Source: a virus. From it: a stretch of DNA of 64,000 nt. Position numbers and translations under genes: made by a program. Below, piece after piece: positions 3,200 through 26,910 of the stretch (positions are counted from its first letter, which is position 1; each line of letters begins with the position of its first letter). The notes beneath the pieces are model-generated. The model made no database searches. It saw only the letters and a program-made list of their open reading frames with translations, and was not told the origin of the DNA. Where the stretch lies: positions 20,499 to 84,498 of the IMG/VR virus record IMGVR_UViG_3300009506_003033; one strand, written 5' to 3'.

Positions 3200-3212
3200 G
3201 ATTGTTCTCCAG

Positions 3213-3321
3213 CAAAGAAAAACGCTCCTAGTCACGTCGGGCCAAACAGGCCAGGGACTAGCCCACCGTCGCGACCAAGAGCGTTGATTTCCTGTCCCTG
3301 TTCATGCGGGTTTGGCTCCGC
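3213..3321 (-). ncRNA. C4/CI-like structured leader RNA, copy 1
   Basis: Leader a=GCCAAAC and b=CAGGGAC; long stem enclosing loop GTCCCTG and bulge GTTTGGC; U-tract. Confidence 0.65.
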
Positions 3322-3330
3322 GTTTCCCGA

Positions 3331-3358
3331 ATTCTACCACATTATACCCGCGTCTCAA
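3331..3358 (-). promoter_or_regulatory. Sigma70-type promoter
   Basis: TTGAGA-16 nt-TAGAAT on the minus strand, just upstream of leader RNA 1. Confidence 0.55.
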
Positions 3359-3482
3359 AATCCATATTAATCTTTAAAAGTCGAGCACGGATATCCGATT
3401 CCTTGTAACCCAGACAATATCGCCGAATTGCCTCTTCGCGTTCTTGGCGATGACGGGATATCATAGTTAGGCCTCCGTCTGT

Positions 3483-3881
3483 CTAATAGCTCAATACGGC
3501 CAGGCAATACAATGCAGGCATCATGCCACGAACTCCTTTGGAATGCAACAAGTCGTCAGTTCTAGCAATGACGCTTTCCGTTAGCGCAGGAACCTCCATG
3601 TGCGGTAAACCGAATCGATGCGAACAAGTTTCCGCAACCAACAACCCGAGATACCATCCATCCCTGTTTTCATAGTCGACATGATGTATAATCGTGCCGT
3701 CCCATAGCTCGGTATCATCTATGGCAATTGCGACGCCACTTTTTGTTGCATATCCTTTTGTTTTGACTATGGCTCCATAGGGTTCTCCGGTAGTCTCGTT
3801 GTATTTGACTACTTGTTCATTTACATCAATGATCTCTATCGGTATGCCGTATACGATTTTGCATCTAATATCTAAACCCAT
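3483..3881 (-). CDS. Hypothetical protein
   Basis: 132-aa ORF, AGGAG RBS. Confidence 0.6.
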   Translation of the reverse strand: MGLDIRCKIVYGIPIEIIDVNEQVVKYNETTGEPYGAIVKTKGYATKSGVAIAIDDTELWDGTIIHHVDYENRDGWYLGLLVAETCSHRFGLPHMEVPALTESVIARTDDLLHSKGVRGMMPALYCLAVLSY

Positions 3882-3893
3882 TGTATTGCTCCT

Positions 3894-4919
3894 TTAAGCC
3901 ACCGTCTGCAAAGCCAGCTCAAAGGCGTTTCGGCAGTGCAAGTCATAACTGCCGAGCAGGCATCTGGCTGCTTTGGCCTCCGAGGTCCTCGCTTGATTCT
4001 GGACGGTCTCGGTGAAGGCGTTGAGCATCGTCCAGGCCGAGCCGCCGAACAGGCTGGATTCGATCTCCATGTTCGACAGACACTTTCCGATGAACTTAGC
4101 GGCCCGCTCCCGTTTCGCGTTGTCTTCTTCCGTCTTACCGCCAGACGGTACGGGGCCTCGCATCTTCGAATAGGCCGACAAAAAGAACAATTCGACCGCT
4201 GCCGTGTCAACGCTCGTGCTGGCCAAGCAATTCATGAGGCTGCGAGTTTCATCGATGGCGCGGCCGTAGAGCCCAAGTGCTGCCTTGGCATCGGCCACTC
4301 TCTTGCGAACGTCTCCTACGTGGCAAGCGACGAATGCCTGCGGAGTGAGTCGCTTCAGTCGGCCAGTCTCATGCTCCCGATCCGGGATGACAGCGTGCAT
4401 TGTGTTTGAGCATACAACCCTGATCGTCGTCGGCGTGCAGCGAATCGCTGTGCCGCCATCGTGGCCGTTGGAGACTAATATATAAGGACAAATGCCATCC
4501 TCGCTTTTGGCCGTCCGAACGCTGAACGAGCGGCCTTGAATCAGAAACCAGACTTTCTTTCCGCTGCGGATCGAACCGGCCGATTCGATGTGCACCGTGT
4601 CGTTCTGTTCGGCAAGCAGTTCGCAGAATTCGGCCAGTTCTGCGTTTTGAATGACATGATAACCCTTGGAGACGATCCCCAGCACTTCGCTAATGTCAGC
4701 CCGAACGTTGGCTACGACATCTGGTACTCGCTGTCCCAGCGGATCCTCGTGCTCGTCACGATGTGCTGAGAGCCACCACTGTTCAACTTCCCAGTCGAGC
4801 CCGAGTCGCTCCAAGGCCTCCCGCGGCGTAGGAGCATCTGGCCACACTTGGCCGAGTCCGTGCCAGGCACCTTGGCCTGCGAATCCTACGCTGTCAGTTA
4901 CTTCGATTTCATGCGCCAT
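3894..4919 (-). CDS. DUF932 family phage/plasmid protein
   Basis: MAHEIE..AWHGLG, SAGSIRSGKKVW, NGHDG, TTIRVVCSNT motifs. Confidence 0.9.
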   Translation of the reverse strand: MAHEIEVTDSVGFAGQGAWHGLGQVWPDAPTPREALERLGLDWEVEQWWLSAHRDEHEDPLGQRVPDVVANVRADISEVLGIVSKGYHVIQNAELAEFCELLAEQNDTVHIESAGSIRSGKKVWFLIQGRSFSVRTAKSEDGICPYILVSNGHDGGTAIRCTPTTIRVVCSNTMHAVIPDREHETGRLKRLTPQAFVACHVGDVRKRVADAKAALGLYGRAIDETRSLMNCLASTSVDTAAVELFFLSAYSKMRGPVPSGGKTEEDNAKRERAAKFIGKCLSNMEIESSLFGGSAWTMLNAFTETVQNQARTSEAKAARCLLGSYDLHCRNAFELALQTVA

Positions 4920-4954
4920 CTCTTCACCCTTTCATAAGTTTCCGTCCTAAAAAA

Positions 4955-5224
4955 TCAATCGATACTCGGGACGGGTCGATGAATCGATTGTTCATTTACG
5001 TTGTTGAGTTCGCGGCATAATATCGCGGCACACAGTGCAGCAAATTCTTTCGTGTTCGGCCGCTGATTCCCTCCCATGCCAGTTGTAAACAGTATGATTT
5101 TATCCTGGCAGCCCCAGCCATAAGTGCTACGCAAAAATTCGTACTCTGTAGCTTTTCGATTGATGACGGAAAGTTCCCAGTGTGTTTCTCCGTATTTTCC
5201 TTTTTCAAAGATTTCCCAAGCCAT
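4955..5224 (-). CDS. Hypothetical protein
   Basis: 89-aa ORF, GAGGG RBS. Confidence 0.5.
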   Translation of the reverse strand: MAWEIFEKGKYGETHWELSVINRKATEYEFLRSTYGWGCQDKIILFTTGMGGNQRPNTKEFAALCAAILCRELNNVNEQSIHRPVPSID

Positions 5225-5271
5225 TATATCCCTCTTTTCAATCGCGGCGAAAACAGATTGGCTTCACACTT

Positions 5272-5649
5272 TCAATTGTCCGCTCTAATGGAATTAGTCG
5301 ATGCCTGGAGCGGTTCAGCGCTTCGACATTCTAACATCGCGACTAGTCGTTTGAGCTTCTCGACAGAGAGCGAGGATAGATCGCGTTGACACAAGACGCG
5401 AATATGACGGATCAGTTCTCGCCGCAACTGATCCTCTCTAATTTGGTCCAGTTCTCCGTTTTCAGGTAGTCTGATGAATGTCGAATCCCACTGATTATGA
5501 CGGCCTATTTCGCGGCCATCGCGTTTTCGGAACGCTCTGTTGCACACAATGATGCGTGTTGGCGTCACGCGCTCAATACGGCAAATGTGATTCTTGTGAA
5601 GCGAGCACAAGATCAATTCGTCGCCGACTTGAACATTGTCGAGGCTCAC
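5272..5649 (-). CDS. Hypothetical protein (SH3-like N-terminus)
   Basis: LDNVQVGDEL..IERVTPTRIIV..FRKRDGREIG pattern. Confidence 0.6.
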   Translation of the reverse strand: MSLDNVQVGDELILCSLHKNHICRIERVTPTRIIVCNRAFRKRDGREIGRHNQWDSTFIRLPENGELDQIREDQLRRELIRHIRVLCQRDLSSLSVEKLKRLVAMLECRSAEPLQASTNSIRADN

Positions 5650-5791
5650 AGCAGACCCCTTCGATTCGTGTTGGTGTTTCTTTCAGCCGCCAGTTGCCGC
5701 GAAATTGGACCACCGAGCCACATCTGCTACACTCGCTGATGGGTCGAGCAGATATCATTTCGTGGCGGCAAGTACGACAAAACCATTTCAT
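5573..5791 (-). CDS. Zn-ribbon protein, first leftward gene
   Basis: CxxC..CxxC; GGGGAG RBS right after the leftward promoter. Confidence 0.5.
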   Translation of the reverse strand: MKWFCRTCRHEMISARPISECSRCGSVVQFRGNWRLKETPTRIEGVCCEPRQCSSRRRIDLVLASQESHLPY

Positions 5792-5806
5792 TTTTTGCTC
5801 CCCGTC

Positions 5807-5840
5807 TTGACAATTATAGCAGATGGGCTAGACTAGTCAA
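5807..5840. promoter_or_regulatory. Overlapping divergent promoters
   Basis: Plus strand TTGACA-16-TAGACT (5807-5834); minus strand TTGACT-16-TATAAT (5840-5813); located at the strand switch. Confidence 0.8.
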
Positions 5841-5851
5841 TAGAGGTTTCG

Positions 5852-6073
5852 ATGAGAAATTTGACGACGCGACAGGTGGCTGAAATTCTGCAGGTGACTC
5901 GCGGCCGAGTACGACAGTATGTATGCAGAGGGCAGCTCCAGGCCGGCAGGTTCAACCACGATCTGGAGTTTTCCCCGGAGGATGTGGAAAAATTCCGGCA
6001 AAAACTGGCCCAGCACCCGCTCGCAAACTGTCATGTGGCAACAATTTACGGTGATTCCGATGATCCCGGCTGA
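5852..6073 (+). CDS. Excisionase/Cro-like HTH DNA-binding protein
   Basis: LTTRQVAEILQVTRGRVRQYV..GQL. Confidence 0.8.
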   Translation: MRNLTTRQVAEILQVTRGRVRQYVCRGQLQAGRFNHDLEFSPEDVEKFRQKLAQHPLANCHVATIYGDSDDPG

Positions 6074-6113
6074 AAAATTCCGGGAAAAATTCGCCCGAGG
6101 GCCGTTTCCTGGG

Positions 6114-6141
6114 TTGACAGCTGTAGCAGTTGAGCTATAAT
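6114..6141 (+). promoter_or_regulatory. Sigma70 consensus promoter
   Basis: TTGACA-16-TATAAT with TAGC-N6-GCTA dyad in the spacer. Confidence 0.8.
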
Positions 6142-6191
6142 TGGAGCAGGATGAGGAAACGAACGGTACTCAAATTTGAAAGGGCGAAACG

Positions 6192-6383
6192 ATGAAGACG
6201 ACGATCAAACGGTTCAAAGTCAAATCAGAGGCGGAGGCCATTCAGTACGTCCAAAACCTGCGGCGCAATCATGACCGGATGGCCACCGTCGAGAAAGACG
6301 GAGATCAATATTATCTATGTGTCCCAATGGAGGTGCGAACCGTCCGGTACGACCAAATCATTGCGGCTTACCGGTTCAACTAG
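6192..6383 (+). CDS. Small early protein
   Basis: Preceded by the repeated GAA(A/G)GGG(C/T)GAAACG-ATG start motif. Confidence 0.6.
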   Translation: MKTTIKRFKVKSEAEAIQYVQNLRRNHDRMATVEKDGDQYYLCVPMEVRTVRYDQIIAAYRFN

Positions 6384-6455
6384 ATAATCATTTCGCCGGG
6401 GCGGTTCGCGTGTTGCGGCCGCCCGTGGCGAGACAATACTTGAAGGGGCGAAACG

Positions 6456-6689
6456 ATGACAAAAATTTGGTTTGACTGGCGAGATAAGCGAATTGCCATT
6501 TCAGCCGATGAAGTTGGATGGTATGGCGAAACACGACCGGTGCTGAGCGGCGTTGATCCTAGTGTTACATTGACTGCCGATGAATTGCGTGATCTGGCAT
6601 TAGCCCTAGATCAGCAGGATTATTCCGATTTCACGGTCAAACAGATGCCTTTTTCGGAATATCTGGATCTCGTCTATTTATCCGCATAG
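6456..6689 (+). CDS. Small early protein
   Basis: Same start motif. Confidence 0.6.
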   Translation: MTKIWFDWRDKRIAISADEVGWYGETRPVLSGVDPSVTLTADELRDLALALDQQDYSDFTVKQMPFSEYLDLVYLSA

Positions 6690-6722
6690 TGCGGTTCTCT
6701 CGTAACTTGAAAGGGTGAAACG

Positions 6723-7055
6723 ATGACAACAACGGATCCCTGGGTGCAAAATCAGATATCCCGTGCTCATCAGCAAATCGCGGGATCGACTGGCGATGAA
6801 ACCGATCGGCTTCATCCAACTATGTCATTTCAGTGGTGCTGCGGACCGGCTAACGGAGGTGAGTTGCCACCGGAAGAATGTCGATTACTCATAATCGATG
6901 GAACTGGTGGCAGCCGAGATGTCGACCTCATTCAGAAATCAGACGACGGAGATGAGGAATATTACATCCTGGATAATTACGGCGACGAATGGATTGGGCG
7001 ACTCGAACTCATTCTTTACTGGACTCGTGCTGATGCGTTGATTCCGGAGAAATGA
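6723..7055 (+). CDS. Small early protein
   Basis: Same start motif; acidic 110-aa ORF. Confidence 0.6.
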   Translation: MTTTDPWVQNQISRAHQQIAGSTGDETDRLHPTMSFQWCCGPANGGELPPEECRLLIIDGTGGSRDVDLIQKSDDGDEEYYILDNYGDEWIGRLELILYWTRADALIPEK

Positions 7056-7765
7056 TCATGAAAACCGACATCGCAATCGGAAACCGCGGAATACAATTAT
7101 CGAGCATTGTGGATTTGGGACGATTTGCTGAAATGGTAGCCCGCAGTCAATTGGCGCCGCTGGGTTTTCAACGGCCCGAACAGATTATGGTTGCCATACA
7201 ATACGGTGCCGAACTCGGCCTGACGCCGATGCAGTCCCTTCAGGGCTTGTGTGTCATCAATGGTCGCGTGGGGATGTCCGGTGACATGGCGAGGGCACTT
7301 GTAGAATCACATCCGGCCTGCAAATACGTCAAAGACAATGCGGCCGAGTTGGCTACAATGCCGCTCGAAAACGATAGCACTGCTGCTTGGGTGGAAGTCT
7401 GCCGTGCTGACAAGCAGCAGAAACCAACTCGTCGATACTTCAGCGTCGGAGACGCTAAGCTCGCCGGCCTCTGGGGCAAACGTGGCCACAATGGCCAACC
7501 GACGCCTTGGGTGACTTACCCGCGGCGCATGCTCTATTACCGCGCCCTCGGATTCGCACTACGGGATGGTATGCCCGACGTTCTTAAGGGAATCACCATC
7601 GCTGAGGAATTGGAGGATTATCCAAAACCTGGACTGCAATCTGGTGGCACACCTCCGTCGAGTACGCTGGACGAGCTGGCCGCAGAAATTGACGGAATAC
7701 ATTCACTCGGGACCAACGGCGTGGTTGGTCCCAATTCATTGGAGCACGAAAATGACGATGAATAG
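7052..7765 (+). CDS. RecT/Beta-like single-strand annealing protein
   Basis: AIQYGAELGLTPMQSLQ..VINGR, DAKLAGLW, PWVTYPRRML..RA. Confidence 0.85.
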   Translation: MIMKTDIAIGNRGIQLSSIVDLGRFAEMVARSQLAPLGFQRPEQIMVAIQYGAELGLTPMQSLQGLCVINGRVGMSGDMARALVESHPACKYVKDNAAELATMPLENDSTAAWVEVCRADKQQKPTRRYFSVGDAKLAGLWGKRGHNGQPTPWVTYPRRMLYYRALGFALRDGMPDVLKGITIAEELEDYPKPGLQSGGTPPSSTLDELAAEIDGIHSLGTNGVVGPNSLEHENDDE

Positions 7766-9200
7766 CAAATTTGAATTGACGAACGTGGGACCGATTAAGG
7801 GGCAATTTTCAATCGATCTTTCTGCCGGGCCGGGATTGTACGAACTTCGCGGCGGGAAGGGCACCGGCAAGTCAACGATCCTCTCGGCATTGTCATTGAT
7901 CAGCGGCCACAAAGTCTCGCTGACGGTCTATGACGGAGAATTGTCTGGCCAAATCAAAGGATTTGGAGTCGTTGCCCCAGTCGGGAGTCGGAAGCGAAAG
8001 AAAGGTGAGCTGGAACTAGAGACGATCGACACGACGCGATGTGATCTTGGGGACTTAATCGACCCTGACGGCAAGACCGCGGAAACACGCGACGCGGCAC
8101 GAATCAAAGCGCTTGCAGCACTATCCAATCTCCGCATGGTGCCGTCCGATTTCTATGAACTAGTAGGCGGTCAACAGTCCTTTGATGAGTTGGGTGTCCA
8201 AGACTCAGATGATGCCGTGACAATGTGCGGACGAGTGAAGTCGGCAATAGAGGAACAAGCCCGCAGACATGAGTCACTTGCGGAACGAGAACAAGGTTAC
8301 GCGAAAGCCAACTCTGAACGTTGCGATGGAATCGATGTAAACAGTGAATACGATCCGAACATACTGGCTATGGCAGCAGAGACGGCCGCACGGGATCTAG
8401 TGCGATTGAAAGACGGGAGAGAACGACGGTTGACTGCAGAGAAACAACGCGCATCTGCCACCGAGGCACTAGCCAAGGCTACAGCCGACTACACGGGTCC
8501 GTCGGTGGAAGAAGCCGCAGCCAACGTAGAAAAGGCTACGGAGAAACGCGACAAATTGCGGGATCAATTGGTAAAAGCCGTAGCCAATCTGAGGATTGCC
8601 GAGGAAAAAGCAACCGCTGCCGAGCAGCATCACAGAACGACAGTTGCATGGCGTGTTACCCTCGCCGAAGAATTGCCGCCTGAAGTAATAGAGCAGCAGA
8701 TTGCGGAGGCACAGATTAAACTGGAAACAGCACGTGCCGATCAAGAAATGGGCGTGCGGATCCGAGACGCACTGCAAGCATCCGAACAAGCCGCGAAGCA
8801 CAAAAGAGCTGCGGAACAGGCCATTACTATCGCGAAAAGGTACCGCGCGATCGCTGGCAATGTCTGGGACGTGCTGACGTCTAAGTTGGCGACACACGAA
8901 CTGAAAATCGAATCGGTGGATGGATATCCCCGACTCGTGGTACAGCATCCCAAACGCGGTAAGACTGTGTACGATTGCGACAATGGACTTTCGGATGGCG
9001 AGCGAGTACGAGTGGCAATCGACGAAATGCTACCGCGGCTGAAATCTCCCGGACTGCTGCCGTTGCCTCAGAGAATCTGGCAAGATTTACCTCCGAAGGA
9101 CAGATCAGAAATCGCCAGATACGCCATGGAAAAGGGACTCTACGTATTCGCGGCGCAGGTGACGGATGATGACCTTGGAGTCTATCGTTATGAATCGTGA
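7752..9200 (+). CDS. SMC/Rad50-like ATPase with coiled coil
   Basis: LTNVGPI, Walker A GGKGTGKS, long coiled coil, LSDGE signature. Confidence 0.75.
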   Translation: MTMNSKFELTNVGPIKGQFSIDLSAGPGLYELRGGKGTGKSTILSALSLISGHKVSLTVYDGELSGQIKGFGVVAPVGSRKRKKGELELETIDTTRCDLGDLIDPDGKTAETRDAARIKALAALSNLRMVPSDFYELVGGQQSFDELGVQDSDDAVTMCGRVKSAIEEQARRHESLAEREQGYAKANSERCDGIDVNSEYDPNILAMAAETAARDLVRLKDGRERRLTAEKQRASATEALAKATADYTGPSVEEAAANVEKATEKRDKLRDQLVKAVANLRIAEEKATAAEQHHRTTVAWRVTLAEELPPEVIEQQIAEAQIKLETARADQEMGVRIRDALQASEQAAKHKRAAEQAITIAKRYRAIAGNVWDVLTSKLATHELKIESVDGYPRLVVQHPKRGKTVYDCDNGLSDGERVRVAIDEMLPRLKSPGLLPLPQRIWQDLPPKDRSEIARYAMEKGLYVFAAQVTDDDLGVYRYES

Positions 9201-10056
9201 ACAATGGCTGACTGAACGTTTGGGTGGTATCGGAGCCAGCGAATCGGCCGCAATTCTCGGCTATGATCCATATCAATCTCCGTGGTCAATCTGGCAGAAG
9301 AAAGTTGATCAGGTCATCGAAGACGTTGACAGCGGTCCGATGGCCGAGTGGGGTCATCGTCACGAATCAGCGATTGCCCAGAAATTCTCCGAAGAGCATC
9401 CCGAATTCGAGATTCAGGATCCCGGAGATTATTACATCGAATGGGCAACCGGATTGTCTGTGCCGATGTTCTGCACGCCCGATCGTATTCTTTATCACGG
9501 CTCTGAGAAATCGGTGCTGGAATTGAAGTGTGCATGGTATGATCGGGCGAAAGAATTCGAGGATGATCTCCCGATTCATTATCGAATCCAGGTGACTCAT
9601 CAGATGCTTTGTCTCGGGATTGAACATGCCTACTACGCGGTACTTCTGAATGGCTATGATTTCCGCTGGTATCGCGAAGAACTGAATGAGAAATTCGCCC
9701 AAGCATTGGTGAAGAAGCTGACAGAATTCTGGGAATTGGTCCAATCGAAGACGGCCCCGGCGACAGACTGGCGGAACGGAACGAAGCAAGCCATCGTCGC
9801 CCATTATGGAGTCGCTGACGTCACCATCGAACTGCCAGAACGAATGGCAACAGTCGACTCAGAGCGAGAGCGACTCAAGTCGCAGAGAGCTGATATCGAT
9901 CGAAAAATCAAAGCCTACGACAACGAAATCAGGGCAGCACTCGGTGAGGCGACAACCGGCGTGCTTCCAGACGGACAGACGGCGTTGACATGGGCACCGA
10001 GGAAAGACGGCGTTAGGATACTCGGACGCAAGACACTCCAAAGAGAGGCATGCTGA
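9190..10056 (+). CDS. YqaJ/lambda-exonuclease family protein
   Basis: WLTERLGGIGASE, GHRHE, TPD..LELK, Y.IQV..QM. Confidence 0.9.
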   Translation: MNREQWLTERLGGIGASESAAILGYDPYQSPWSIWQKKVDQVIEDVDSGPMAEWGHRHESAIAQKFSEEHPEFEIQDPGDYYIEWATGLSVPMFCTPDRILYHGSEKSVLELKCAWYDRAKEFEDDLPIHYRIQVTHQMLCLGIEHAYYAVLLNGYDFRWYREELNEKFAQALVKKLTEFWELVQSKTAPATDWRNGTKQAIVAHYGVADVTIELPERMATVDSERERLKSQRADIDRKIKAYDNEIRAALGEATTGVLPDGQTALTWAPRKDGVRILGRKTLQREAC

Positions 10057-10610
10057 TGCAAAAGCGTACCACTCGTTGCACGGCATGCGGAAGAATATTT
10101 GCCGTGGATGCACGTCGAAACAACGAGGGAATCCCCATCCGTGAGAGGCGAGAAGCCGTTCCGGGTACGTCCTATGCTGTCCTGTGGTGCCCTTGGTGCC
10201 ATGAGGCGAGTGGCTGGAATGGGAAGCATCAGACGATTGCAGCACTGAAACGATACGCATCGATGCTCGTGAACGCAACTGTGAAGAATGCGGCTGTTCG
10301 GCCTGATGGCAGAGTCGAATGCGTGACCTGCGGATTGCTGCTAGACCGAGACGACAACCGCGTAAACGCCGGCCACTGCGCCCCACAACTCCAGTCCACC
10401 AGTTATTACTACGACCAAAGGTGTATCAGGGTCCAGTGCGCAGCGTGCAACTGTGCCCGCGGTGGAATGCAATATGAATTCTCACAAGTGATCATTGCCG
10501 AGGAAGGTGAGGAATTCTGGAATGAGGTGCTGGACGCAAAAAACCGCAAAGATGTTCCATCCGTGACAGTTGGAGAACTTAGGGAAGTGATCAATCAGTA
10601 CGACAGGTGA
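10050..10610 (+). CDS. NinG/Rap-like recombination endonuclease
   Basis: CVTCG..NAGH..QCAACN zinc/HNH-like motifs. Confidence 0.75.
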   Translation: MLMQKRTTRCTACGRIFAVDARRNNEGIPIRERREAVPGTSYAVLWCPWCHEASGWNGKHQTIAALKRYASMLVNATVKNAAVRPDGRVECVTCGLLLDRDDNRVNAGHCAPQLQSTSYYYDQRCIRVQCAACNCARGGMQYEFSQVIIAEEGEEFWNEVLDAKNRKDVPSVTVGELREVINQYDR

Positions 10611-10701
10611 ATCCGTGCTTCCCCATCGCTGTAAACACGTTGCGACGCATCGCACTTATGTCGTTGGTCGCGAGTATGTCTGCTTTTTCAAGGAATGTAA
10701 A

Positions 10702-10923
10702 ATGACGATGGTACAAGAGATTATTCGACGCCTGGAACATTACGGATATACATCACCAGGTGGGTTCAACCTCGCCGCAGACATCCTCGAATTGGCTGCG
10801 CATGAATCCGATAACCGGACGAATCGCGCAGACGATGCGATGCGAATACCTGACATGATCGGCGACACAGCGCGGATGCTGCGAGAAATGGCGCAGGCAC
10901 ATATCGATCGAATTTTAGGATAG
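10702..10923 (+). CDS. Hypothetical protein
   Basis: AAGGA RBS; helical ORF. Confidence 0.5.
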   Translation: MTMVQEIIRRLEHYGYTSPGGFNLAADILELAAHESDNRTNRADDAMRIPDMIGDTARMLREMAQAHIDRILG

Positions 10924-10990
10924 GGCCAGTCCGGTTGCCGCTGGGCCCGTTTTGTTGTTGCCCGGTTGTTGCCCGGATGGGAGCTGAACG

Positions 10991-11302
10991 ATGGAAACGA
11001 TCGAAACCTACACGTTTGAATCTAGAATGGCAGACGAACGTAGCAGGCAAATTCGGAAGTGGGGCGAGCAAACGCACTCCGGACATGCATGGATAGCGAT
11101 ACTTGTCGAGGAAGTCGGCGAATTTGCGAAAGCTGTCAACGAGGAAAAACTATCTGGTGCTTTGGATGAACTAGTCCAGATAGCTGCGGTGGCCAAGGCC
11201 GCGTGGGAAATGGCAACAGAGAAGCGAGGAATTCTTGAGCCAATCTGGGGCGAATGCTTGCAGACGCCAGCTGATGCAGACTTGACAACGACGCCGGATT
11301 GA
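10991..11302 (+). CDS. MazG-like NTP pyrophosphohydrolase domain protein
   Basis: ERSRQIRKWG..ILVEEVGEFAKA..ELVQIAAV. Confidence 0.75.
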   Translation: METIETYTFESRMADERSRQIRKWGEQTHSGHAWIAILVEEVGEFAKAVNEEKLSGALDELVQIAAVAKAAWEMATEKRGILEPIWGECLQTPADADLTTTPD

Positions 11303-11473
11303 GCAAAAATCATGGCTTCGTCAACACAGACCAAAACGCCAGATGCGTTTAGATAGGGCCGCTGTCCGGGTTCGCCCGGCACGCGGCCCGCTTTGTTGTT
11401 GTTCGGAGGGAGGTGATAATCTTGAACCCCACCGCTATACCAGGTGGCTTGTGATCGCGGGGCAGTGCCCCGC

Positions 11474-11502
11474 TTTACAGACTGATCGACTGTGTGTATA
11501 AT
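11474..11502 (+). promoter_or_regulatory. Sigma70 promoter with extended -10
   Basis: TTTACA-17-TATAAT with TG upstream of the -10. Confidence 0.65.
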
Positions 11503-11641
11503 TCAGGTGCCAAAAGTCACATGGAAGACAAAGCAATGTCACAAGACCCTCAAACCCGCAGCGGCCAGATGGATGAACCATCGGGTCGCATTGCTTCGGC
11601 CCTGGCAGGCCGCCGCGGGTCTGGGGGTCTTTCTTTGTCTT
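11503..11641 (+). ncRNA. C4/CI-like leader RNA, copy 2 (cloverleaf)
   Basis: a=TGCCA, b=AGCAATG; stem 11543-11631 encloses hairpin GATGG/CCATC, loop CATTGCT and bulge TGGCA. Confidence 0.55.
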
Positions 11642-11848
11642 CTCTAGACGAGGCCCCGCAAGTGATGATCGATGTCGCCGATCTGGTGGACTGCTTGCCG
11701 CTAGAGCATGCTACTGAAATGTCCATCTGGTTGCGAAATGCGGCCGAATATGTCGCTGGATTGTCACGAAGGTGAAGCACAGCCCGGCCCAGATCCCAGC
11801 CGGTTAAGGCCACGACTCAGCGAGCCAAAATGGGACGGCAGCCCCGCA

Positions 11849-12127
11849 GGTAACTTCGGGTGCGATAAAATCCAGGCCATAGCCACGCAAATACTCGGCC
11901 ACCATCGAGGGCTTGCGGTAGCGTTGGCCGTTAGCTGGAAGGCTATTAAGGTTTCTACCATGACTTCCTAAAAGATCATGCCCGAGGCGATCTATGATTT
12001 CTGGCGGGACAGTTATAGCCTTCCAGTCAACGGCCACGTCGGATTCGTGGAAGGACCCTTTGTTGGGCGGTTGGATACCACGTTAAAAACACGGAGCGGG
12101 CTAGGGGATTTTGCGCAAAGATTTACC
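11849..12127 (+). ncRNA. Candidate large structured ncRNA
   Basis: Nested long-range stems (11925-11946 with 12015-12036; 11860-11884 with 12099-12117) in a region without a credible ORF. Confidence 0.5.
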
Positions 12128-12153
12128 GAATCTGATTTCTGAGGACGTTATCC

Positions 12154-12537
12154 GTGTCACGCCATAGACGTCAAACAAAGAACCAACATCGCAACAGTGA
12201 TAACGAATCGTATCGCAAAGCACTCGGTCATACACAACGTTCTGGTATTTCTCGCAACGAAAACTTCCACGTCGCCACAACGCATGTCGCAATTTTTCCG
12301 ACTCTTGTGAGACGTAATCGGCAGACACAGGAAACCGTTTCGGAATCTGACAACGGTTTGATTTCTTTGAAAGAAAACCAGAAACCGAACCGCAACTTCG
12401 AGATTCGGGATCTGGCCAACAAAACGGTTGAATACTGTATTCAACGGCTGAAGACCATGGATATGGACGCCATGTCAGTACGCCGATTTTTCCAGTACTT
12501 GGCCGAGGTTTGTGACGACGTAACCAACGACAGGTGA
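12154..12537 (+). CDS. Hypothetical protein
   Basis: GAGGA RBS with GTG start; ends in the boundary repeat. Confidence 0.45.
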   Translation: MSRHRRQTKNQHRNSDNESYRKALGHTQRSGISRNENFHVATTHVAIFPTLVRRNRQTQETVSESDNGLISLKENQKPNRNFEIRDLANKTVEYCIQRLKTMDMDAMSVRRFFQYLAEVCDDVTNDR

Positions 12538-12541
12538 GACA

Positions 12542-12742
12542 GTGACTACAGAATCCGCTAAATCTGAAACTCAGCAGGCTGAGCATGTTCTCGATGGTGC
12601 TGACATGAATCAGGATCTCCACCAGCTGATTGGCTACGTGTGGTCTTGTGGTGCGGAATCGCCGGACTTTCCAGTATCACAACTGTTGGAGCTTGCACGA
12701 TGTTTTCTTTGCAAAATACCGACCATTAACCGAGGTTTGTGA
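12542..12742 (+). CDS. Small cassette ORF
   Basis: Lies between repeats; AGGTGAG RBS supplied by the repeat. Confidence 0.5.
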   Translation: MTTESAKSETQQAEHVLDGADMNQDLHQLIGYVWSCGAESPDFPVSQLLELARCFLCKIPTINRGL

Positions 12743-12768
12743 CGACGTAACCAACGACGGATGCCCCG

Positions 12769-12954
12769 ATGGACGAATGTGAACTCTGCGGAGATACAGA
12801 TTTTGATCATCATAAGTGTGTTCAATGTGGCAGGGTTATTTGTACTGAATGTTGTGAATGGTGTCATGATGAAGATGACGAACCGAGTGGTGAATGGTTT
12901 TGTACTGAATGTATTGAAGCAGCAATTGTTGACGACTTAACCAACGACAGGTGA
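12769..12954 (+). CDS. Small Cys-rich zinc-finger protein
   Basis: Four CxxC pairs. Confidence 0.6.
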   Translation: MDECELCGDTDFDHHKCVQCGRVICTECCEWCHDEDDEPSGEWFCTECIEAAIVDDLTNDR

Positions 12955-12958
12955 GACG

Positions 12959-13246
12959 ATGATTCAACCACTGACACTGGAAGAGGAGATTAACTTGCTT
13001 CCACCGCTGACACCGGAGGAACAAGCGGTATGTGACTCGATTGACTTCAATGCGATCATTGCCAAAATGCACGCAATGATGCCACCGGAAGAACGTCCGA
13101 AATGGCAAGTAATAGATGATCGTGGTGGCTCAATTAAACTGTTCTTCAAGGAAAGTGATGCGTACGACGATGCCACAGAACGCAACTACCGCGCAGGCAA
13201 CTATGGAGTCTATGCTAGATACCATGTAATCCGATACGTAACATAA
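12959..13246 (+). CDS. Small cassette ORF
   Basis: RBS supplied by the repeat. Confidence 0.55.
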   Translation: MIQPLTLEEEINLLPPLTPEEQAVCDSIDFNAIIAKMHAMMPPEERPKWQVIDDRGGSIKLFFKESDAYDDATERNYRAGNYGVYARYHVIRYVT

Positions 13247-13261
13247 TCGACGATAGGTGAG

Positions 13262-13462
13262 ATGATGGAATCGTATACACATGGTACTTGGGAATCAGCC
13301 ATACAATTTGTAATGGAACACATTGACGATTTTCGGAACGGCCGGACAGATGTATATGTTGCTGGACGAAAGAGACGGCTGAGACTTACTTCAAGTCAAT
13401 TGGCTGAACTTATCTGCCTGGCGGAATGGAGACTGGAACAATGCCAAAAGTCAGTGACATGA
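13262..13462 (+). CDS. Hypothetical protein
   Basis: AGGTGAG RBS from a degenerate repeat copy. Confidence 0.5.
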   Translation: MMESYTHGTWESAIQFVMEHIDDFRNGRTDVYVAGRKRRLRLTSSQLAELICLAEWRLEQCQKSVT

Positions 13463-13734
13463 CCAGCGAAGAATTGGCGCGGCTGATTGATGAGCGATTT
13501 AAGATTGCCGTAGATGATTTGGTGAAGCACGGAGAATCTGTGGGCCGAGCGTTTTTATTGCAGCAAGTGAATCAGTTGCGAGAAGAGATTCGCACTACGA
13601 ACGAGCGGCTGGACAAAGCGGCCAAGGTATTCGATCACCTGAAAAACGCAGTCAGCGAGCACGATCAGTGGTTGCATTCGATGAGACATCAGGCGGCGCC
13701 GGCCGAGATATCCAAAGATTTGGGCTCGGGATGA
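13441..13734 (+). CDS. Coiled-coil protein
   Basis: GGAG RBS; heptad pattern. Confidence 0.55.
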   Translation: MPKVSDMTSEELARLIDERFKIAVDDLVKHGESVGRAFLLQQVNQLREEIRTTNERLDKAAKVFDHLKNAVSEHDQWLHSMRHQAAPAEISKDLGSG

Positions 13735-14343
13735 ACACCGGCGCCGTTTTTTTCAAAGAGAGCGTGTCATGAAAGAACAGTCAGATCGACGAATCCAACG
13801 ACATCCAATCGCGCCGAAGCGAGACAGGCAGGCAATTGCCACAAAGGCCATTCGACGCCGGGCGATCGAAGAAGGTTGGAACGTGCGGCCAGTCGACTTG
13901 GGCACCGAAGGTGTGATATTGGCTGCATGGGGGACGATCGAACGAGGACTCAAGAAATGACGAACGAGTGCAGTAACCCGATTGATGATCGTAGGGATGA
14001 TTGGTGGACTTGGACGGGTGAATCGACTTGCGGATGTGAATGCAAATGGGTGCCACTGATAGGAATAGATTTTCCACCGATCGTGAGCCAGGTTCCACCG
14101 AAAGAAATCTGCGTGAAGCCGGGAGAGACAAGTCTGTGGCAGATTACAAAGACGAGACGTCGCAGAAGAAGCCGCTGATACCAATTCAAAATCTGGCAGC
14201 AATGATACTGTTATCATGTTGTATGTGGGGTTTTGTTGGTTTGATCATAGCATCGATATTATTGATGCTGTAGAAGACACCTTGTAGGTGTATCCGTGGT
14301 CAAGCGGTTTTAGGGAGGCTGCTTGGCCAGGGTAGACGAAGCC

Positions 14344-14378
14344 GTGGCGGCGGAGTGGTGTCCGCCGCCACATTTTTC
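14344..14378 (+). terminator. Rho-independent terminator
   Basis: GTGGCGGCGGA/TCCGCCGCCAC stem followed by ATTTTT. Confidence 0.7.
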
Positions 14379-14388
14379 GTTTTGAATA

Positions 14389-14416
14389 TTGACACACCCG
14401 ATCCGGTGATTATGAT
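14389..14416 (+). promoter_or_regulatory. Sigma70 promoter
   Basis: TTGACA-16-TATGAT. Confidence 0.7.
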
Positions 14417-14424
14417 GGGTGGTA

Positions 14425-14536
14425 GCGGAGCCCAACCCGCAGATGAAACCTACGAAGTGACTAACGCCTTTCATTGCGACGGTGGGCTCCGTAGGTGCCC
14501 GTTGGGAACCGTCGCAGTGAGAGGCGTTGTTTTGTT
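14425..14536 (+). ncRNA. C4/CI-like leader RNA, copy 3
   Basis: GCGG-AGCCCAAC-CCGC hairpin, b=ACCTACG; stem 14463-14528 encloses loop CGTAGGT and bulge GTTGGG; sequence related to copy 1. Confidence 0.7.
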
Positions 14537-14548
14537 AATCACACCCCA

Positions 14549-17071
14549 ATGAATGTTCATTTTGACACTCGTGATATCGATAGCTATCGGCTGTTTTGCA
14601 AGATCAAACGGCTGCCAACTTATCAACTGACTGGCCATGTCGCGACGTTTCCAGACGAGTACGCAGCCAAACTGGGATTGCAAGGCATCACGAACGAAGA
14701 GATTGGTTATGAGCCACATCCTGACGTATTTGATTACCAACGGGATATAGTGCGAATATGTCTGAGGAAGCGAAAGTTCGCTATTTTTGCTGATTGCGGA
14801 CTTGGCAAGACAATTATGTTTCTGGAATGGATTAAGGCTCTGGGAACGGTACTCAATGGCAAATCAGCACTGATTATATCTCCATTGATGGTGATTCCGC
14901 AGACGATTGCCGAGAGCCGAAAATGGTTCTACGAGGACTTGCCAATTCAACAAGTGCGAGCAGCGGAACTTGTACGGTGGCTCAAATCTCCGACGTCTCA
15001 GATTGGTATCACCAACTATGATGCATTGACACAAGATGGACTCACTAATCGCAATCTCGGAGCATTGGTACTAGATGAAAGTTCAATGCTTAAGAGTCAT
15101 TATGGCAAATGGGCCAGCCAATGTCTCGCACTCGGCCAGGGATTGGAATGGAAATTAGCTTGTACCGGTACGCCAGCACCGAATGACAGAATCGAATATG
15201 CAAATCATGCGGTGTATTGTGATGCGTTTTCATCTATCAATGGTTTCTTGGCAACATTTTTTGTCAATCGTGGCCAGACACAGGAACGATGGGTGCTAAA
15301 AGATCATGCATTGGAATCATTCTATCGTGCATTGTCGCATTGGTGCATCTTCCTGACTCGACCGGAAATCTATGGCTGGAAGGACAACACTCAACCTTTG
15401 CCGCCGATCGTGATTCACGAGCACGACATAGCGTTAACAAAAGAACAGCAATCGATATTCACATCAGAAACGGGAGAACTGTTTGCAAACCGCATGGGTG
15501 GAATTCGCACTAGAGGTAAGCTCGGGCAGTTGGCAAAGGGCCATCACAATGGCAAGGAAGTATCGACGAACAAGCCAGCAGCTATTCGCCGATTGATACA
15601 GCAGTGGCCGGATGAATCGACGATTGTGTGGTGTATCTACAACCGAGAACAAGATCAGCTCGCGAAAGAAATACCAGAGGCGGCAAGCATCTCAGGAGCA
15701 ACTCCCATTGGACAACGATTAGAATTAATCGAGGAATTTAAAGCTGGTATCCGTAGGATACTGATAACCAAGCCAAAGATACTTGGATTTGGTTTGAATC
15801 TGCAAATTGCCACGAGGCAAGTATTTGCTGGGCTACAAGACTGTTATGACGACATGACGGAAGTGTTGACTCGCAATGGCTGGAAAACATTTGGCGATTG
15901 CGACATGGATGATCAGCTGGCCACGTGCAATCCGACGACGCTCCAGTTTGAATGGCAATGGCCAACAGAAATCATTTGGTCCGAATATATGGGGCCAATG
16001 ATTCAGTTTGGCGGCCAGCGAGGCTTCGACTTACTCGTAACACCCAATCATCGGATGTTTGTTTGCAGGTGTCCGATCAGGTATCGGTTGGCAAATAGAG
16101 CGTGGCATTTCCGGTATGCCAACGAACTATGCGAGAATTACAGACGACAGGAATATCGCATGTTGTCATGCTCGCAACTCTGGCGTGGCGATTCGCCAGA
16201 GGTAATTGTAAACACATGCGAATCCGGCCGATCGCGATGGGCTACTGTCAAAACGGTGCACGAAATGGCAACAGAGGACGCGGTACGACTGGCGGGATGG
16301 TATGTGACTGAAGGGCATTGCAGATTGCCAACGACAGCTGAATTTGGTCGCATTGTAATATGTCAGAGTGATGGTAATCCATCAAATCGGGCGGAGATCA
16401 TCGACCTGCTGTCTAGGTTGTTCGGTTCCGTAAACACAAACACTAAGGATTTGACGAGCTATTGCCGGCACGTGGCACACTGGCTGCTGTCTGAGTTCGG
16501 GCATGGATCACATAACAAGCGTCTCCCCCGCTGGATTAAGGATCTTGATGCTCGTTATCTTTGTATATTGCGAGATGTCATGATGAAAGGCGACGGTGGG
16601 GCTACTGGCCGATATTATCGAACAGCGAGCCGACAATTGGCCGACGACTTCCAGGAAGTGGCAATCAAAACTGGCATTCGGGCATCCGTTAAACCCCGCA
16701 TTTGCAAGGGCTCGACTTTATACGATGTCGTTCTGGAATACGAGCATACGCAACCATCAATATCGAGTACTCCGTCTGTCGTCAGCTACGAAGGCATGAT
16801 AGGGTGTGCTCGGGTGATGAATGGGACACTGATTGTGCGTCGCAACGGTATCCCAGTCGTGAGCGGCAACAGCTACGAATCATTCTATCAGGCGGTGAAA
16901 CGTAGCAACCGCTATGGTGCTGTTAAATCACTGAATGTCCATATCCCTATGACAGATTTAGAGCGACCTATGGTTGAAAATGTGCTTAGGAAAGCAAAAC
17001 GGATTGATGAGGATACTCGGGCACAGGAGAGATACTTCCGACGAGCATCAAAGGAACTTGCGTCGTGGTAG
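14549..17071 (+). CDS. SNF2-like helicase interrupted by an intein
   Basis: DCGLGKT, LDESS, CTGTPAPND, GFGLNLQ, YQAVKRSNRYG motifs. Confidence 0.9.
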   Translation: MNVHFDTRDIDSYRLFCKIKRLPTYQLTGHVATFPDEYAAKLGLQGITNEEIGYEPHPDVFDYQRDIVRICLRKRKFAIFADCGLGKTIMFLEWIKALGTVLNGKSALIISPLMVIPQTIAESRKWFYEDLPIQQVRAAELVRWLKSPTSQIGITNYDALTQDGLTNRNLGALVLDESSMLKSHYGKWASQCLALGQGLEWKLACTGTPAPNDRIEYANHAVYCDAFSSINGFLATFFVNRGQTQERWVLKDHALESFYRALSHWCIFLTRPEIYGWKDNTQPLPPIVIHEHDIALTKEQQSIFTSETGELFANRMGGIRTRGKLGQLAKGHHNGKEVSTNKPAAIRRLIQQWPDESTIVWCIYNREQDQLAKEIPEAASISGATPIGQRLELIEEFKAGIRRILITKPKILGFGLNLQIATRQVFAGLQDCYDDMTEVLTRNGWKTFGDCDMDDQLATCNPTTLQFEWQWPTEIIWSEYMGPMIQFGGQRGFDLLVTPNHRMFVCRCPIRYRLANRAWHFRYANELCENYRRQEYRMLSCSQLWRGDSPEVIVNTCESGRSRWATVKTVHEMATEDAVRLAGWYVTEGHCRLPTTAEFGRIVICQSDGNPSNRAEIIDLLSRLFGSVNTNTKDLTSYCRHVAHWLLSEFGHGSHNKRLPRWIKDLDARYLCILRDVMMKGDGGATGRYYRTASRQLADDFQEVAIKTGIRASVKPRICKGSTLYDVVLEYEHTQPSISSTPSVVSYEGMIGCARVMNGTLIVRRNGIPVVSGNSYESFYQAVKRSNRYGAVKSLNVHIPMTDLERPMVENVLRKAKRIDEDTRAQERYFRRASKELASW
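15842..16870 (+). mobile_element. Intein with LAGLIDADG homing endonuclease (343 aa)
   Basis: GLQD|CYDDMTEVLT..VTPNHRM..LAGWYVTEG..MMKGDGG..VVSGN|S. Confidence 0.92.
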
Positions 17072-23433: not shown

Positions 23434-23438
23434 TTCCA

Positions 23439-25366: not shown

Positions 25367-25708
25367 ATGAAACTGGCTGTTATCGCATCGTTTGTGGCAA
25401 TACTCTTCCTTGTCAGCGCATGTAGTGCTGACGTCATTTATCGTCCCGGATTGCTTCCGGGCGTTTGGTGGGGAATTCAGCCGGCGGGGCCACCGATCAC
25501 AGTGCAACCGATGCAACGAGTTCGCATTCGTGTTTTTCGGCCATGGTTCTTGGCTGTGCCGCCGGTCATTCAGTACCCACGAGGACCATATTCACCGGTT
25601 CAGGTAATGCCAGGATCATCGGCGCCAACGTGGGGCGAATATCAGGGTCGATGGGGATGGGGAGTCATTCCACAGCAGAATTCAACCGTAACCAAAGAGG
25701 AGCAATGA
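25367..25708 (+). CDS. Small secreted Pro/Trp-rich protein
   Basis: MKLAVIASFVAILFLVSACSA signal peptide. Confidence 0.6.
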   Translation: MKLAVIASFVAILFLVSACSADVIYRPGLLPGVWWGIQPAGPPITVQPMQRVRIRVFRPWFLAVPPVIQYPRGPYSPVQVMPGSSAPTWGEYQGRWGWGVIPQQNSTVTKEEQ

Positions 25709-25998
25709 TGGCAGGACGAGGAAAGAAAGTGTGCCCAGAATGCAGTTCAGAATGCGGCACGAGAAGCAAAGAGTGTCCGAGTTGCAGTCATGTGTTCGCG
25801 GCCAGACGCGAATCGAAGAGGCCGCGAGTGCCAACTGATGCCGAACTAAAGGCACAAGATGTTTCCAGCAACGGAGCCATGATCCAGGCATCGAATGCCT
25901 TGGCGGCAATTGAGGCCGCTCGAAAATTGGTAGACTGTTGCAGCGGAGACGCGGCAGCCGCGAACGAGTTGATTCTATCTATGATCGGCCAAGATTAA
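25705..25998 (+). CDS. Zn-ribbon protein
   Basis: GKKVCPECSSECGTRSKECPSCSHVF. Confidence 0.65.
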   Translation: MMAGRGKKVCPECSSECGTRSKECPSCSHVFAARRESKRPRVPTDAELKAQDVSSNGAMIQASNALAAIEAARKLVDCCSGDAAAANELILSMIGQD

Positions 25999-26012
25999 AG
26001 AGTCGATGGTCG

Positions 26013-26078
26013 CGAGGCACGATGGACTGCCCCGTCTCGGCTTGGAGCGATGTCGGGACGGGGTTGCCTCGCTTTTTG
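26013..26078 (+). terminator. Bulged stem-loop with U-tract
   Basis: GCGAGGCA..CCCCGTC / GACGGGG..TGCCTCGC followed by TTTTT. Confidence 0.55.
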
Positions 26079-26088
26079 AAAGCAACTC

Positions 26089-26763
26089 ATGCCTGTTTTC
26101 TGTCTTTGCACCGGCCGCTGCGGATCGCAATCTATAGTTGATCTGCTGAAGCGAAACGGCGTCGAAGGCTGTCATCACGAGAAATATCCGGCACTCTTTC
26201 GTGAAGCAATCGGTTATTATTACGGGCTCTACAGTCGGGATCGAATCGTAGCGAAGTTGCGAGAGACGCGGCAGGGCGTGTTCTTCGAGGCCAACAACAA
26301 ACTCTTTCCGTTGGCCAAGCCTCTTTTTCAGGCGTTTCCCGACGCCAAGTTCATGGTTCTGCATCGCGACGGCAGAGAAGTAGTGCGGTCGGCTCTTCAG
26401 AGCAATTGGTATCATCCCAAAGATCCCTATGGCATGTTGAGGCTCGGTGCGAGGATGAGAATCTCGCAGTTCAAGAAGGTGTGTCGATATTGGTCTGAAG
26501 TTTACCGGCGCATCTACGATGATCTGGCATCGCTGGATTGTGAATTCATTGAAGTACGATTCGATGAATTGATCAAAGGCAAATTGGCGGATCAGCTCGG
26601 CAAGTTCATCGGCAGGAGGCTAAGACTTCGCGTGCCGCGGAGACTGCACCGCACGAAGCGATGGACGGTGAAACCATACGCGCAGTGGAAGCCCGAGCGG
26701 CAGCGAGAATTTCGGAGCATCTGCGGCCCGATGATGGAACGGCTGGGATATTCTTTCGATTGA
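26089..26763 (+). CDS. Sulfotransferase family protein
   Basis: TGRCGSQ (5'-PSB loop), FPDAKFMVLHRDGREVVRS, RFDEL, MERLGY. Confidence 0.85.
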   Translation: MPVFCLCTGRCGSQSIVDLLKRNGVEGCHHEKYPALFREAIGYYYGLYSRDRIVAKLRETRQGVFFEANNKLFPLAKPLFQAFPDAKFMVLHRDGREVVRSALQSNWYHPKDPYGMLRLGARMRISQFKKVCRYWSEVYRRIYDDLASLDCEFIEVRFDELIKGKLADQLGKFIGRRLRLRVPRRLHRTKRWTVKPYAQWKPERQREFRSICGPMMERLGYSFD

Positions 26764-26768
26764 CGGTA

Positions 26769-26796
26769 TTGACAGAATATCGCAGTCGTTTATAAT
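26769..26796 (+). promoter_or_regulatory. Sigma70 consensus promoter of the RAMP/array locus
   Basis: TTGACA-16-TATAAT. Confidence 0.85.
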
Positions 26797-26806
26797 CTGG
26801 TTTATA

Positions 26807-26910
26807 CGGTGTGGCAGCCGAAGAGTCCGGAGAGCCAAAACCCTTCGGTGTTCGCAACGAGCGCTTCTCCGGTGCTCACTGCCACGCGGTCACCGAAGGG
26901 TTTTTGTTTT
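26807..26910 (+). ncRNA. C4/CI-like leader RNA, copy 4
   Basis: a=GTGGCAG, b=CCGGAGA; stem AAAACCCTTCGGTG/CACCGAAGGGTTTT encloses loop TCTCCGG and bulge CTGCCAC; U-tract. Confidence 0.7.

Follow-up and report, generated by a model that had tools for sequence, protein, structure and literature searches.

Four structured leader RNAs in a provirus

The 64,000-nt stretch of viral DNA analysed here (the window, to which all positions refer) corresponds to bases 20499-84498 of an 84,498-bp IMG/VR provirus record, and carries phage genes coding for DUF932 and YqaJ exonuclease proteins, methylases, helicases, the large terminase (TerL), portal, head and tape-measure proteins. It also contains four structured leader RNAs, each about 108-135 nt long, which constitute a real paralogous family and are numbered here copies 1 to 4. 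An initial annotation of this DNA, made from the sequence alone, had already proposed four leaders at these places, and all four were found there. They share a common order of elements: a sigma70-like promoter is followed by a hairpin (P0) with a first box (a), a second box (b), the 5' arm of a long stem (P1), a small hairpin (P2), a bulge, the 3' arm of P1 and a T-rich tract. P0, a hairpin of 3-4 bp whose 8-nt loop carries box a, is present in three leaders, with a stem of 4 bp in copies 1 and 3 and of 3 bp in copy 4. Box b is single-stranded, lies 9-18 nt beyond box a, and is separated from P1 by a linker of only 3-8 nt. P1 comprises 16-22 uninterrupted pairs, or 18-30 bp if single mismatches are allowed; inside it, the loop of P2 presents a sequence, b', and a 3' bulge of 5-8 nt that follows P2 presents another, a'. 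At all four sites a:a' and b:b' are exact Watson-Crick complements, as had been proposed for boxes that differ from locus to locus, the b box of copy 2 being 8 nt long, one more than initially quoted. Since a U-tract directly follows P1, this stem can be regarded as an intrinsic terminator; in each leader 16-22 contiguous pairs are succeeded by at least 5 T within 8 nt.

Copy 1 (3213-3321, minus strand) consists of P0 at 3321-3306 with box a at 3316-3310, box b at 3300-3294, the P1 5' arm at 3285-3266, P2 at 3264-3248 with b' (3258-3252) in its loop, a' at 3247-3241 in the 3' bulge, the P1 3' arm at 3240-3221 and the U-tract at 3221-3213. The other leaders lie on the plus strand. In copy 3 (14425-14536), P0 (14425-14440; box a, 14431-14436) and box b (14448-14454) precede the P1 5' arm (14463-14483), P2 (14484-14500; b' in the loop, 14490-14496), a' in the 3' bulge (14501-14506), the P1 3' arm (14508-14528) and the U-tract (14529-14536). 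The corresponding elements of copy 4 (26807-26911) are P0 at 26807-26820, box a at 26811-26817, box b at 26827-26833, the P1 5' arm at 26837-26855, P2 at 26859-26877, b' at 26866-26872 in the loop and 3' strand of P2, a' at 26879-26885 in the 3' bulge, the P1 3' arm at 26886-26904 and the U-tract at 26905-26911. The identical topology claimed for all four leaders applies to these three copies, and copy 2 (11508-11641) departs from it: there is no clear P0, box a (11508-11512) is only 5 nt long, and an extra 5-bp inner hairpin (11568-11582) occupies the 5' side of the interior. Its remaining elements are box b (11531-11538), the P1 5' arm (11543-11566), P2 (11583-11602; b' in the loop, 11589-11596), a' in the 3' bulge (11603-11607), the P1 3' arm (11608-11631) and a T-rich tract (11632-11641).

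The sigma70 promoters reported to precede the leaders were recovered in every case as sigma70-like sites. Copy 1 is preceded by a promoter-like region (3331-3370, minus strand) with two overlapping sites that each match the consensus at 10/12 positions, TTAATA-18-TATAAT (3370-3341) and TTGAGA-16-TAGAAT with a TG element (3358-3331). The sites before copy 2 (TTTACA-17-TATAAT, 11474-11502, plus strand) and copy 3 (TTGACA-16-TATGAT, 14389-14416, plus strand) score 11/12, and that before copy 4 (TTGACA-16-TATAAT, 26769-26796, plus strand) scores 12/12. Only six sites reach at least 11/12 in positions 1-40000; three of them are those of copies 2, 3 and 4, and no such leader lies downstream of the remaining three (6114 plus, 5840 minus and 31337 plus). 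A strong terminator-like hairpin with an 11-pair stem (14344-14371) is found just before the promoter-like site of copy 3.

Folding, box complementarity and covariation

The minimum free energies (MFEs) of copies 1 to 4 are -52.2, -70.9, -59.3 and -46.2 kcal/mol; among 200 shuffled sequences per copy, 0, 0, 0 and 3 folded as well (z of -2.8, -6.9 (-6.94), -4.7 and -2.6). Within the full-length ensembles, box bases are more often unpaired (0.45-1.0) than the RNA average (0.33-0.39). When 5000 random 60-mers of the same record, own sites included, were scored for nested a and b complementarity, 6, 113, 14 and 35 equalled or exceeded the observed score of copies 1, 2, 3 and 4, respectively. A scanner that requires a long stem, a T-run and two nested exact complements returned 50 terminator-like candidates in the 84,498-bp record, of which only the four leaders combine a score of at least 13 with a stem of at least 14 bp; in 2,182,171 bases of other loci, the same level was reached by 2 of 704 candidates.

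These frequencies bear on one alternative, namely that the leaders are plain promoter-proximal terminators, opened by a Q-like antiterminator, in which the box complementarity arose by chance. The late region of phage lambda, PR'-tR' with its 6S RNA, has a strong promoter and, about 100 nt on, a strong terminator, and the leaders resemble this layout. Yet nested complementarity of two boxes recurs at the same places in 4/4 elements, comparable matches number 2 in 2.18 Mb of control DNA as opposed to 4 in 84.5 kb, and no Q-like protein was detected among the 50 open reading frames (ORFs) scanned, a subset of all ORFs. Together with the covariation described below, which argues against chance and includes compensated changes in b:b' at 7/7 pairs, these data make this explanation highly improbable.

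Copies 1 and 3 had been noted to have primary sequence in common, and indeed align with 80% mean column identity. The blocks 'GCGGAGCC.AACCCGCA' and 'GCGACGGTGGGCT' are unchanged between them, and box b is wholly replaced. Covariation was counted on this alignment, with the box pairings entered as pseudoknots (MAFFT misaligns the four copies). The two sequences are paired in 97.6% of the 84 cells, and 13 of the 42 pairs have changed on both sides, in support of the covariation that the first reading implied: 7/7 in b:b', 1/6 in a:a' and 5/21 in P1. None of 500 shuffles attains the observed values, and at most 2 such pairs remain once the partners are shifted by 1-3 columns. Although the two-sequence sample is small, so complete and fully compensated a replacement of a box would be difficult to account for unless pairing were under selection.

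A covariance model built from copies 1 and 3 (R1), which scores its own members at 114.1 bits (copy 1) and 127.4 bits (copy 3), retrieved copy 2 (20.6 bits, E = 0.0078) and copy 4 (20.3 bits, E = 0.0089) as the next best forward-strand matches in the 64 kb; the reverse-strand image of copy 3 scores 30.7 bits. No fifth copy was found in the 64 kb with this model, the other matches being mirror images of the same hairpins or falling below 11.1 bits.

The box sets are also predicted not to cross-pair: by calculation, cofolding of cognate partners gains -11.5 to -24.3 kcal/mol, and that of the twelve non-cognate combinations -2.6 to -9.8 kcal/mol. The earlier proposal of four RNAs without cross-talk is thus supported at the level of prediction.

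Relationship to C4 and other phage RNAs

Joint consideration of the annotation of phage P1 and the Rfam consensus gives, for the P1 immunity region, a promoter, a 4-bp hairpin with box a1 in its 8-nt loop, box b1, the 77-nt C4 RNA, and then a2/b2 over the icd ribosome-binding site. In C4, the outer stem encloses two inner hairpins, the second of which presents b' in its loop; a 7-nt 3' bulge with a' comes next, before the closing arm. The order of elements in the four leaders is that of P1 C4 with its a1/b1 leader. The first inner hairpin of C4 has a counterpart in copy 2. Copies 1, 3 and 4 agree with the c4-a1b1 motif in that box a occupies the 8-nt loop of a short hairpin and is succeeded by an unpaired box b; in copy 4, the P0 loop deviates from the loop of the c4-a1b1 consensus by one or two nucleotides. 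Moreover, box sequences vary between the heteroimmune phages P1 and P7, as they do between the four leaders.

The differences are equally clear. The first hairpin of the c4-a1b1 Rfam motif is absent from all four leaders, and the linker between box b and the stem is 66 nt long in P1 as compared with 3-8 nt here. C4 is matured by RNase P and ends in CCACC after its outer stem, whereas the stems of the leaders run straight into a T-rich tract. P1 possesses a single module, located before icd/ant, with a2/b2 at the icd/ant ribosome-binding site; the present genome has four copies, none of them followed by Icd or Ant, and no such downstream site was seen in the record. The search for targets (a plus b, up to 1 mismatch, 0-45 nt between the two, both strands, 84.5 kb) returned, as exact matches, only the own leader of each RNA and its mirror image.

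Rfam models did not recognize the leaders. No family matched at its gathering cut-off in the 64 kb, and C4 gave no match at E ≤ 10 in 30 kb; C4, c4-a1b1 and isrK gave none at E ≤ 10 in the four loci (664 nt), and RF01695 gave 0 matches at E ≤ 10 in the 84.5-kb record. The gathering cut-offs of RF01695 (C4) and RF03163 (c4-a1b1), both of clan CL00128, are 45 and 46.7 bits. The only matches to the four loci were four weak, unrelated ones (three miRNA families and Pseudomon-Rho), far below the cut-offs. As a positive control, the P1 immI region (661 nt) scored 68.8 bits with C4 (E = 2.9e-13), 51.0 with c4-a1b1 and 35.1 with isrK. Consequently, the leaders are not members of the C4 family as currently modelled, and of the C4/CI likeness originally claimed it is the layout that stands, not a match to the C4, c4-a1b1 or isrK models. 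We believe that they are best filed as a variant of the C4/CI kind, in which the C4 plus a1/b1 layout has a stem that is itself an intrinsic terminator. C4 itself can be cited as one published parallel (PMC12197685).

Might the leaders simply be ordinary trans-acting antisense RNAs of the C4 type? Under this explanation the real a2/b2-like targets, at ribosome-binding sites, would lie elsewhere, be it in the unsequenced end of the prophage, the host or competing phages; the upstream boxes would merely aid folding or processing, and the U-tract would merely end a small RNA gene. The functional targets in P1 are indeed a2/b2 at the start of icd, a1/b1 being annotated only as putative, and the record ends inside the tail genes, so that part of the phage is unseen. 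In addition, a CCCAAT at 14545-14550, at the ATG of the helicase gene (14549), could pair with a' of copy 3 over 6 bp, including one G-U. Against this, no second a plus b site with at most 1 mismatch and sensible spacing occurs near any gene start in the 84.5 kb, and each of the four RNAs has a strong promoter before it and the first gene of an operon behind it; given that position, their terminators must affect the genes downstream. We judge this explanation improbable. The CCCAAT might, as a separate observation, be a weak a2-like site, with no b2 partner present.

The immunity RNA CI of satellite phage P4 offers a functional parallel. CI pairs with seqA and seqC, which leads to premature termination, and the promoter may stay active while the downstream genes are off (PMC4825925). 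According to the same text, a small RNA encoded in the leader pairs with a complement upstream of itself in that leader, with termination as the outcome, as we propose here; P4, however, has a second target downstream (seqC) and releases its RNA by processing, whereas our leaders have upstream boxes only and their own stem is the terminator. No P4-type downstream target (seqC-like) of the leaders was found in the 84.5 kb. The initial annotation had stated that loop and bulge pairing causes termination in both P1 C4 and P4 CI; this is correct for P4 CI (PMC4825925), but P1 a2/b2 is annotated as repressing icd/ant translation.

IsrK of Gifsy-1 (RF01394) is instructive for its two isoforms, since one promoter gives rise to two transcripts, a short RNA that is terminated and an mRNA produced by read-through, of which the former acts in trans on the latter (PMC4825925). 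The scheme proposed below is of this short/long kind, but IsrK, as described there, activates translation of orf45/anrP. The isrK family is related to the a1/b1 module of P1, because its model scores 35.1 bits on the P1 a1/b1 region. In plasmid copy control of the pT181 and pIP501 type, whether a read-through fold or a terminator forms depends on an antisense RNA bound to the nascent leader. There this RNA is transcribed from the opposite strand, and an arm of the terminator takes part in the alternative fold; here the regulator would be the leader itself, with its boxes in a loop and a bulge.

Two other identities were considered and set aside. A retron RNA is disfavoured as no reverse transcriptase was present among the ORFs scanned, and a riboswitch because almost no nucleotides are conserved across the four copies.

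Search for relatives outside the record

A search of one genome per GTDB species identified a sole relative of TerL, in a Pirellulaceae metagenome-assembled genome (39% identity). On the strength of this single relative, a planctomycete is the probable host; the C4-type motifs of Rfam were reported from Proteobacteria and their phages (PMC2864571). Within the family of that genome (151 genomes), R1 gave matches at E ≤ 1 in 7 genomes. The best of them (42.3 bits; 1501-1602, minus strand, in the numbering of that genome's own sequence) is a plain long terminator with a stem like the P1 stem of copies 1 and 3 and neither P2 nor boxes, and the next two are short partial hairpins; these candidates were rejected.

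Pattern scans of IMG/VR returned 15, at least 119 and 51 stretches, none of which showed the leader anatomy among the matches listed, and a pattern scan of metagenomes returned 49 stretches, again none with this anatomy. Copy 3 had no blastn match among GenBank phages. Five related viral records contained 0 R1 matches, and the scanner found nothing at threshold in the whole records. None of nine helicase relatives (42-60% identity) has a leader upstream, and the contig of the single DUF6948 relative ends there, so that its upstream region is cut. These searches relied on exact words or on the two-sequence model with strict filters, and would miss divergent members. No description of C4-like terminator leaders in several copies was found in the literature, a search that did not extend to the supplements of PMC2864571 and PMC5737381 (c4-a1b1, c4-2).

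Genes downstream of the leaders

The first gene after copy 1 encodes a DUF6948 protein (2909-3199, minus strand; PF22253, E = 2.3e-09), and the rest of this operon, on the same strand, consists of a 118-aa ORF, a Dam-type methylase gene (1544-2521; PF05869, E = 5.5e-15) and a 186-aa ORF. Copy 2 is followed by small ORFs with no recognized family. Copy 3 precedes a gene for a SNF2/DEAD-type helicase (14549-17071, plus strand), whose ATG at 14549 fits the N-termini of its relatives; a methylase and a second helicase gene follow in the operon.

Beyond copy 4, an array of GGC-NN pentamers with a period of 5/10 (26922-27102, plus strand) begins 11 nt past the U-tract, and further arrays are located at 27883-28754, 29604-29717 and 29978-30210. 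They surround a 248-aa ORF (27119-27865) whose only PDB match at E ≤ 1 is annotated as 'SUSP1 Vipr protein' (E = 0.0031, 20.4 bits). The arrays and this weak match fit a VIPR-like locus. The initial description of the downstream genes as non-antirepressor genes (helicase, RAMP locus) is accurate in that they are not antirepressors and include a helicase, but the supposed RAMP locus is better read as VIPR-like. Apart from the promoter before copy 4, the VIPR-like locus (26922-30210) apparently possesses no strong promoter. No close relative of the Vipr-like protein was found in IMG/VR by the method used.

VIPR systems are described in a preprint (10.64898/2026.04.26.720920) in which the vrRNA tail is a conserved 3' extension of the YNNGG repeat tract. 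Its main text contains neither 'leader' nor 'terminator'; a second VIPR preprint from 2026 does not use 'terminator', and contains 'leader' only within 'leadership' (acknowledgements). A reading of our leaders as vrRNA tails was rejected, for copy 4 lies 5' of the first array, that is, on the wrong side, and copies 1-3 have no adjoining array.

A model of self-targeting attenuation

Taking these data together, we put the probability at roughly 55% that the leaders act as self-targeting attenuators of the P4 CI type, each operon limiting itself through its own RNA. Under this model, pairing of b with b' or of a with a' within one molecule would be incompatible with a closed P1 terminator; intramolecular b:b' in particular could not coexist with closed P1, as the 3-8-nt linker is too short to span an 18-30-bp helix. 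On the nascent transcript, a:a' and b:b' could form first, because the polymerase reaches a' and b' ahead of the 3' arm of P1, and would then kinetically hinder closure of the terminator, thereby permitting read-through. Folding of transcripts that end after a' agrees with this for copies 1, 2 and 4, the MFE structures being those with a:a' and b:b' (-32.3, -30.7 and -33.7 kcal/mol). Once terminated or processed, the leader would have a stable stem on which a hairpin loop exposes b' and a bulge exposes a'. With its accumulation, this RNA would bind a and b of new transcripts in trans, remove the hindrance and so promote termination. The expected result is negative autoregulation of each operon through its own RNA, in four channels without mutual interference; private codes would be required, since four such loops would operate in one cell. 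In a lysogen, the methylase, helicase and VIPR-like operons could be kept low while the promoters remain active, and the same RNAs could confer a P4-like, RNA-based superinfection immunity.

The main competitor of this model has the leaders working in cis only, the choice between the box fold and the terminator being set by a phage or host protein bound to the sequence shared in P0 and the upper stem, by polymerase speed, or by ribosomes translating a short leader ORF over b. The structural evidence is the same for both. In favour of a cis-only element, 'GCGGAGCC.AACCCGCA' and 'GCGACGGTGGGCT' have been retained in copies 1 and 3 despite the replacement of box b, and an ATG common to these copies opens ORFs across b of 15 codons (3305-3258, minus strand) and 5 codons (14443-14460, plus strand); in copy 2, the ATG at 11521 opens an 84-codon ORF (11521-11775, plus strand) that runs through b and the whole terminator. 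On the other hand, copy 4 has no ATG-initiated leader ORF, and there is almost no sequence common to all four that one protein could recognize, R1 giving copies 2 and 4 only about 20 bits. Private box sets, furthermore, are expected of RNA-RNA recognition in which cross-talk has to be avoided, and a cis-only element would have no need of them. We therefore consider cis-only control unlikely. The short leader ORFs of copies 1, 2 and 3 are of note in themselves as possible leader peptides, with no Shine-Dalgarno sequence evident.

Several observations weigh against self-targeting attenuation. Boxes a and b do not pair with an arm of the terminator, unlike those of classical antiterminators, and the steric hindrance of terminator closure by box pairing is presumed; to our knowledge, there is no precedent for loop and bulge boxes that act as an antiterminator. 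In copies 1-3 the terminator is far more stable than the a:a'/b:b' fold (-52.2/-44.1, -71.2/-40.7 and -55.4/-36.7 kcal/mol, respectively), so any anti-termination would have to be kinetic. For the copy 3 transcript that ends after a', a rival fold is better by 5 kcal/mol than the one with the boxes forced (-31.2 vs -26.2 kcal/mol). In this transcript, positions 14425-14434 (the 5' strand of P0 and part of box a) are complementary over 10 bp to 14483-14492 (the top of P1 and P2), which gives rise to a third competing fold. Box a of copy 2, short as it is, coincides with the predicted start of transcription, and part of it may be missing from the RNA. No homologue of the leaders was found outside the record by pattern, blastn, R1 or scanner searches, and for this reason the covariation rests on paralogues, essentially on one sequence pair. 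Finally, a small helix-turn-helix (HTH) protein and divergent promoters at 5813-6141 may provide ordinary protein-based control.

A wider proposal, which we advance only tentatively and hold to be less probable than its negation, is that this phage uses RNA-only control with four independent channels. Every early or accessory operon, VIPR included, would be gated by its own C4-like RNA, at once terminator and trans-acting repressor of its own leader, the codes would evolve by compensated replacement, and the leaders would represent an uncatalogued class of attenuators, distantly related to C4/CI and extending beyond the Proteobacteria.

C4 and CI are textbook cases of phage RNA immunity, known as single modules before antirepressor or replication genes in proteobacterial phages. 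In this prophage the C4 design is fused to a terminator, occurs in four copies with codes predicted not to cross-react, and stands before DNA-modification, helicase and VIPR-like operons in what is probably a planctomycete host. If the model is true, these RNAs would amount to naturally occurring transcription attenuators that are compact (~110 nt) and predicted to be orthogonal, would illustrate code diversification via whole-box compensated replacement, would provide a first lead on the regulation of a VIPR locus, and would mark a blind spot of current Rfam models.

Genomic setting and other features

The record opens with ~20 kb of glycosyltransferase, methyltransferase and nucleotide-sugar genes, which share one strand and directly adjoin the phage early genes; this segment may be host flank. 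At its other end the record stops within the tail region. The same DNA is present in marine-sediment metagenome runs of one study, a possible source, and comparison of three DNA contig sets over 3100-14600 revealed no differences inside the leaders.

Two of the promoter-like sites that lack a leader, both near consensus and divergent (5840-5813, minus strand, and 6114-6141, plus strand), flank a gene for a 73-aa HTH/excisionase-like protein (5852-6073), and no C4-like leader is associated with them. The region 5813-6141 is probably a protein-based switch. The third, a 12/12 sigma70-like promoter at 31337-31366, lies inside the end of a ParB-methylase ORF and is followed by a hairpin without a U-tract, just before a DUF5131 gene.

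One metagenome run also contains a 10,134-nt contig (depth 25) with 21-nt stretches that match, with one mismatch each, positions 14470-14490 and 4141-4161 of the window. These two stretches, 2 kb apart on the contig, correspond to the upper P1/P2 of copy 3 and to the DUF932 gene. The contig may stem from a related phage in the same sample, or the match may be due to chance.

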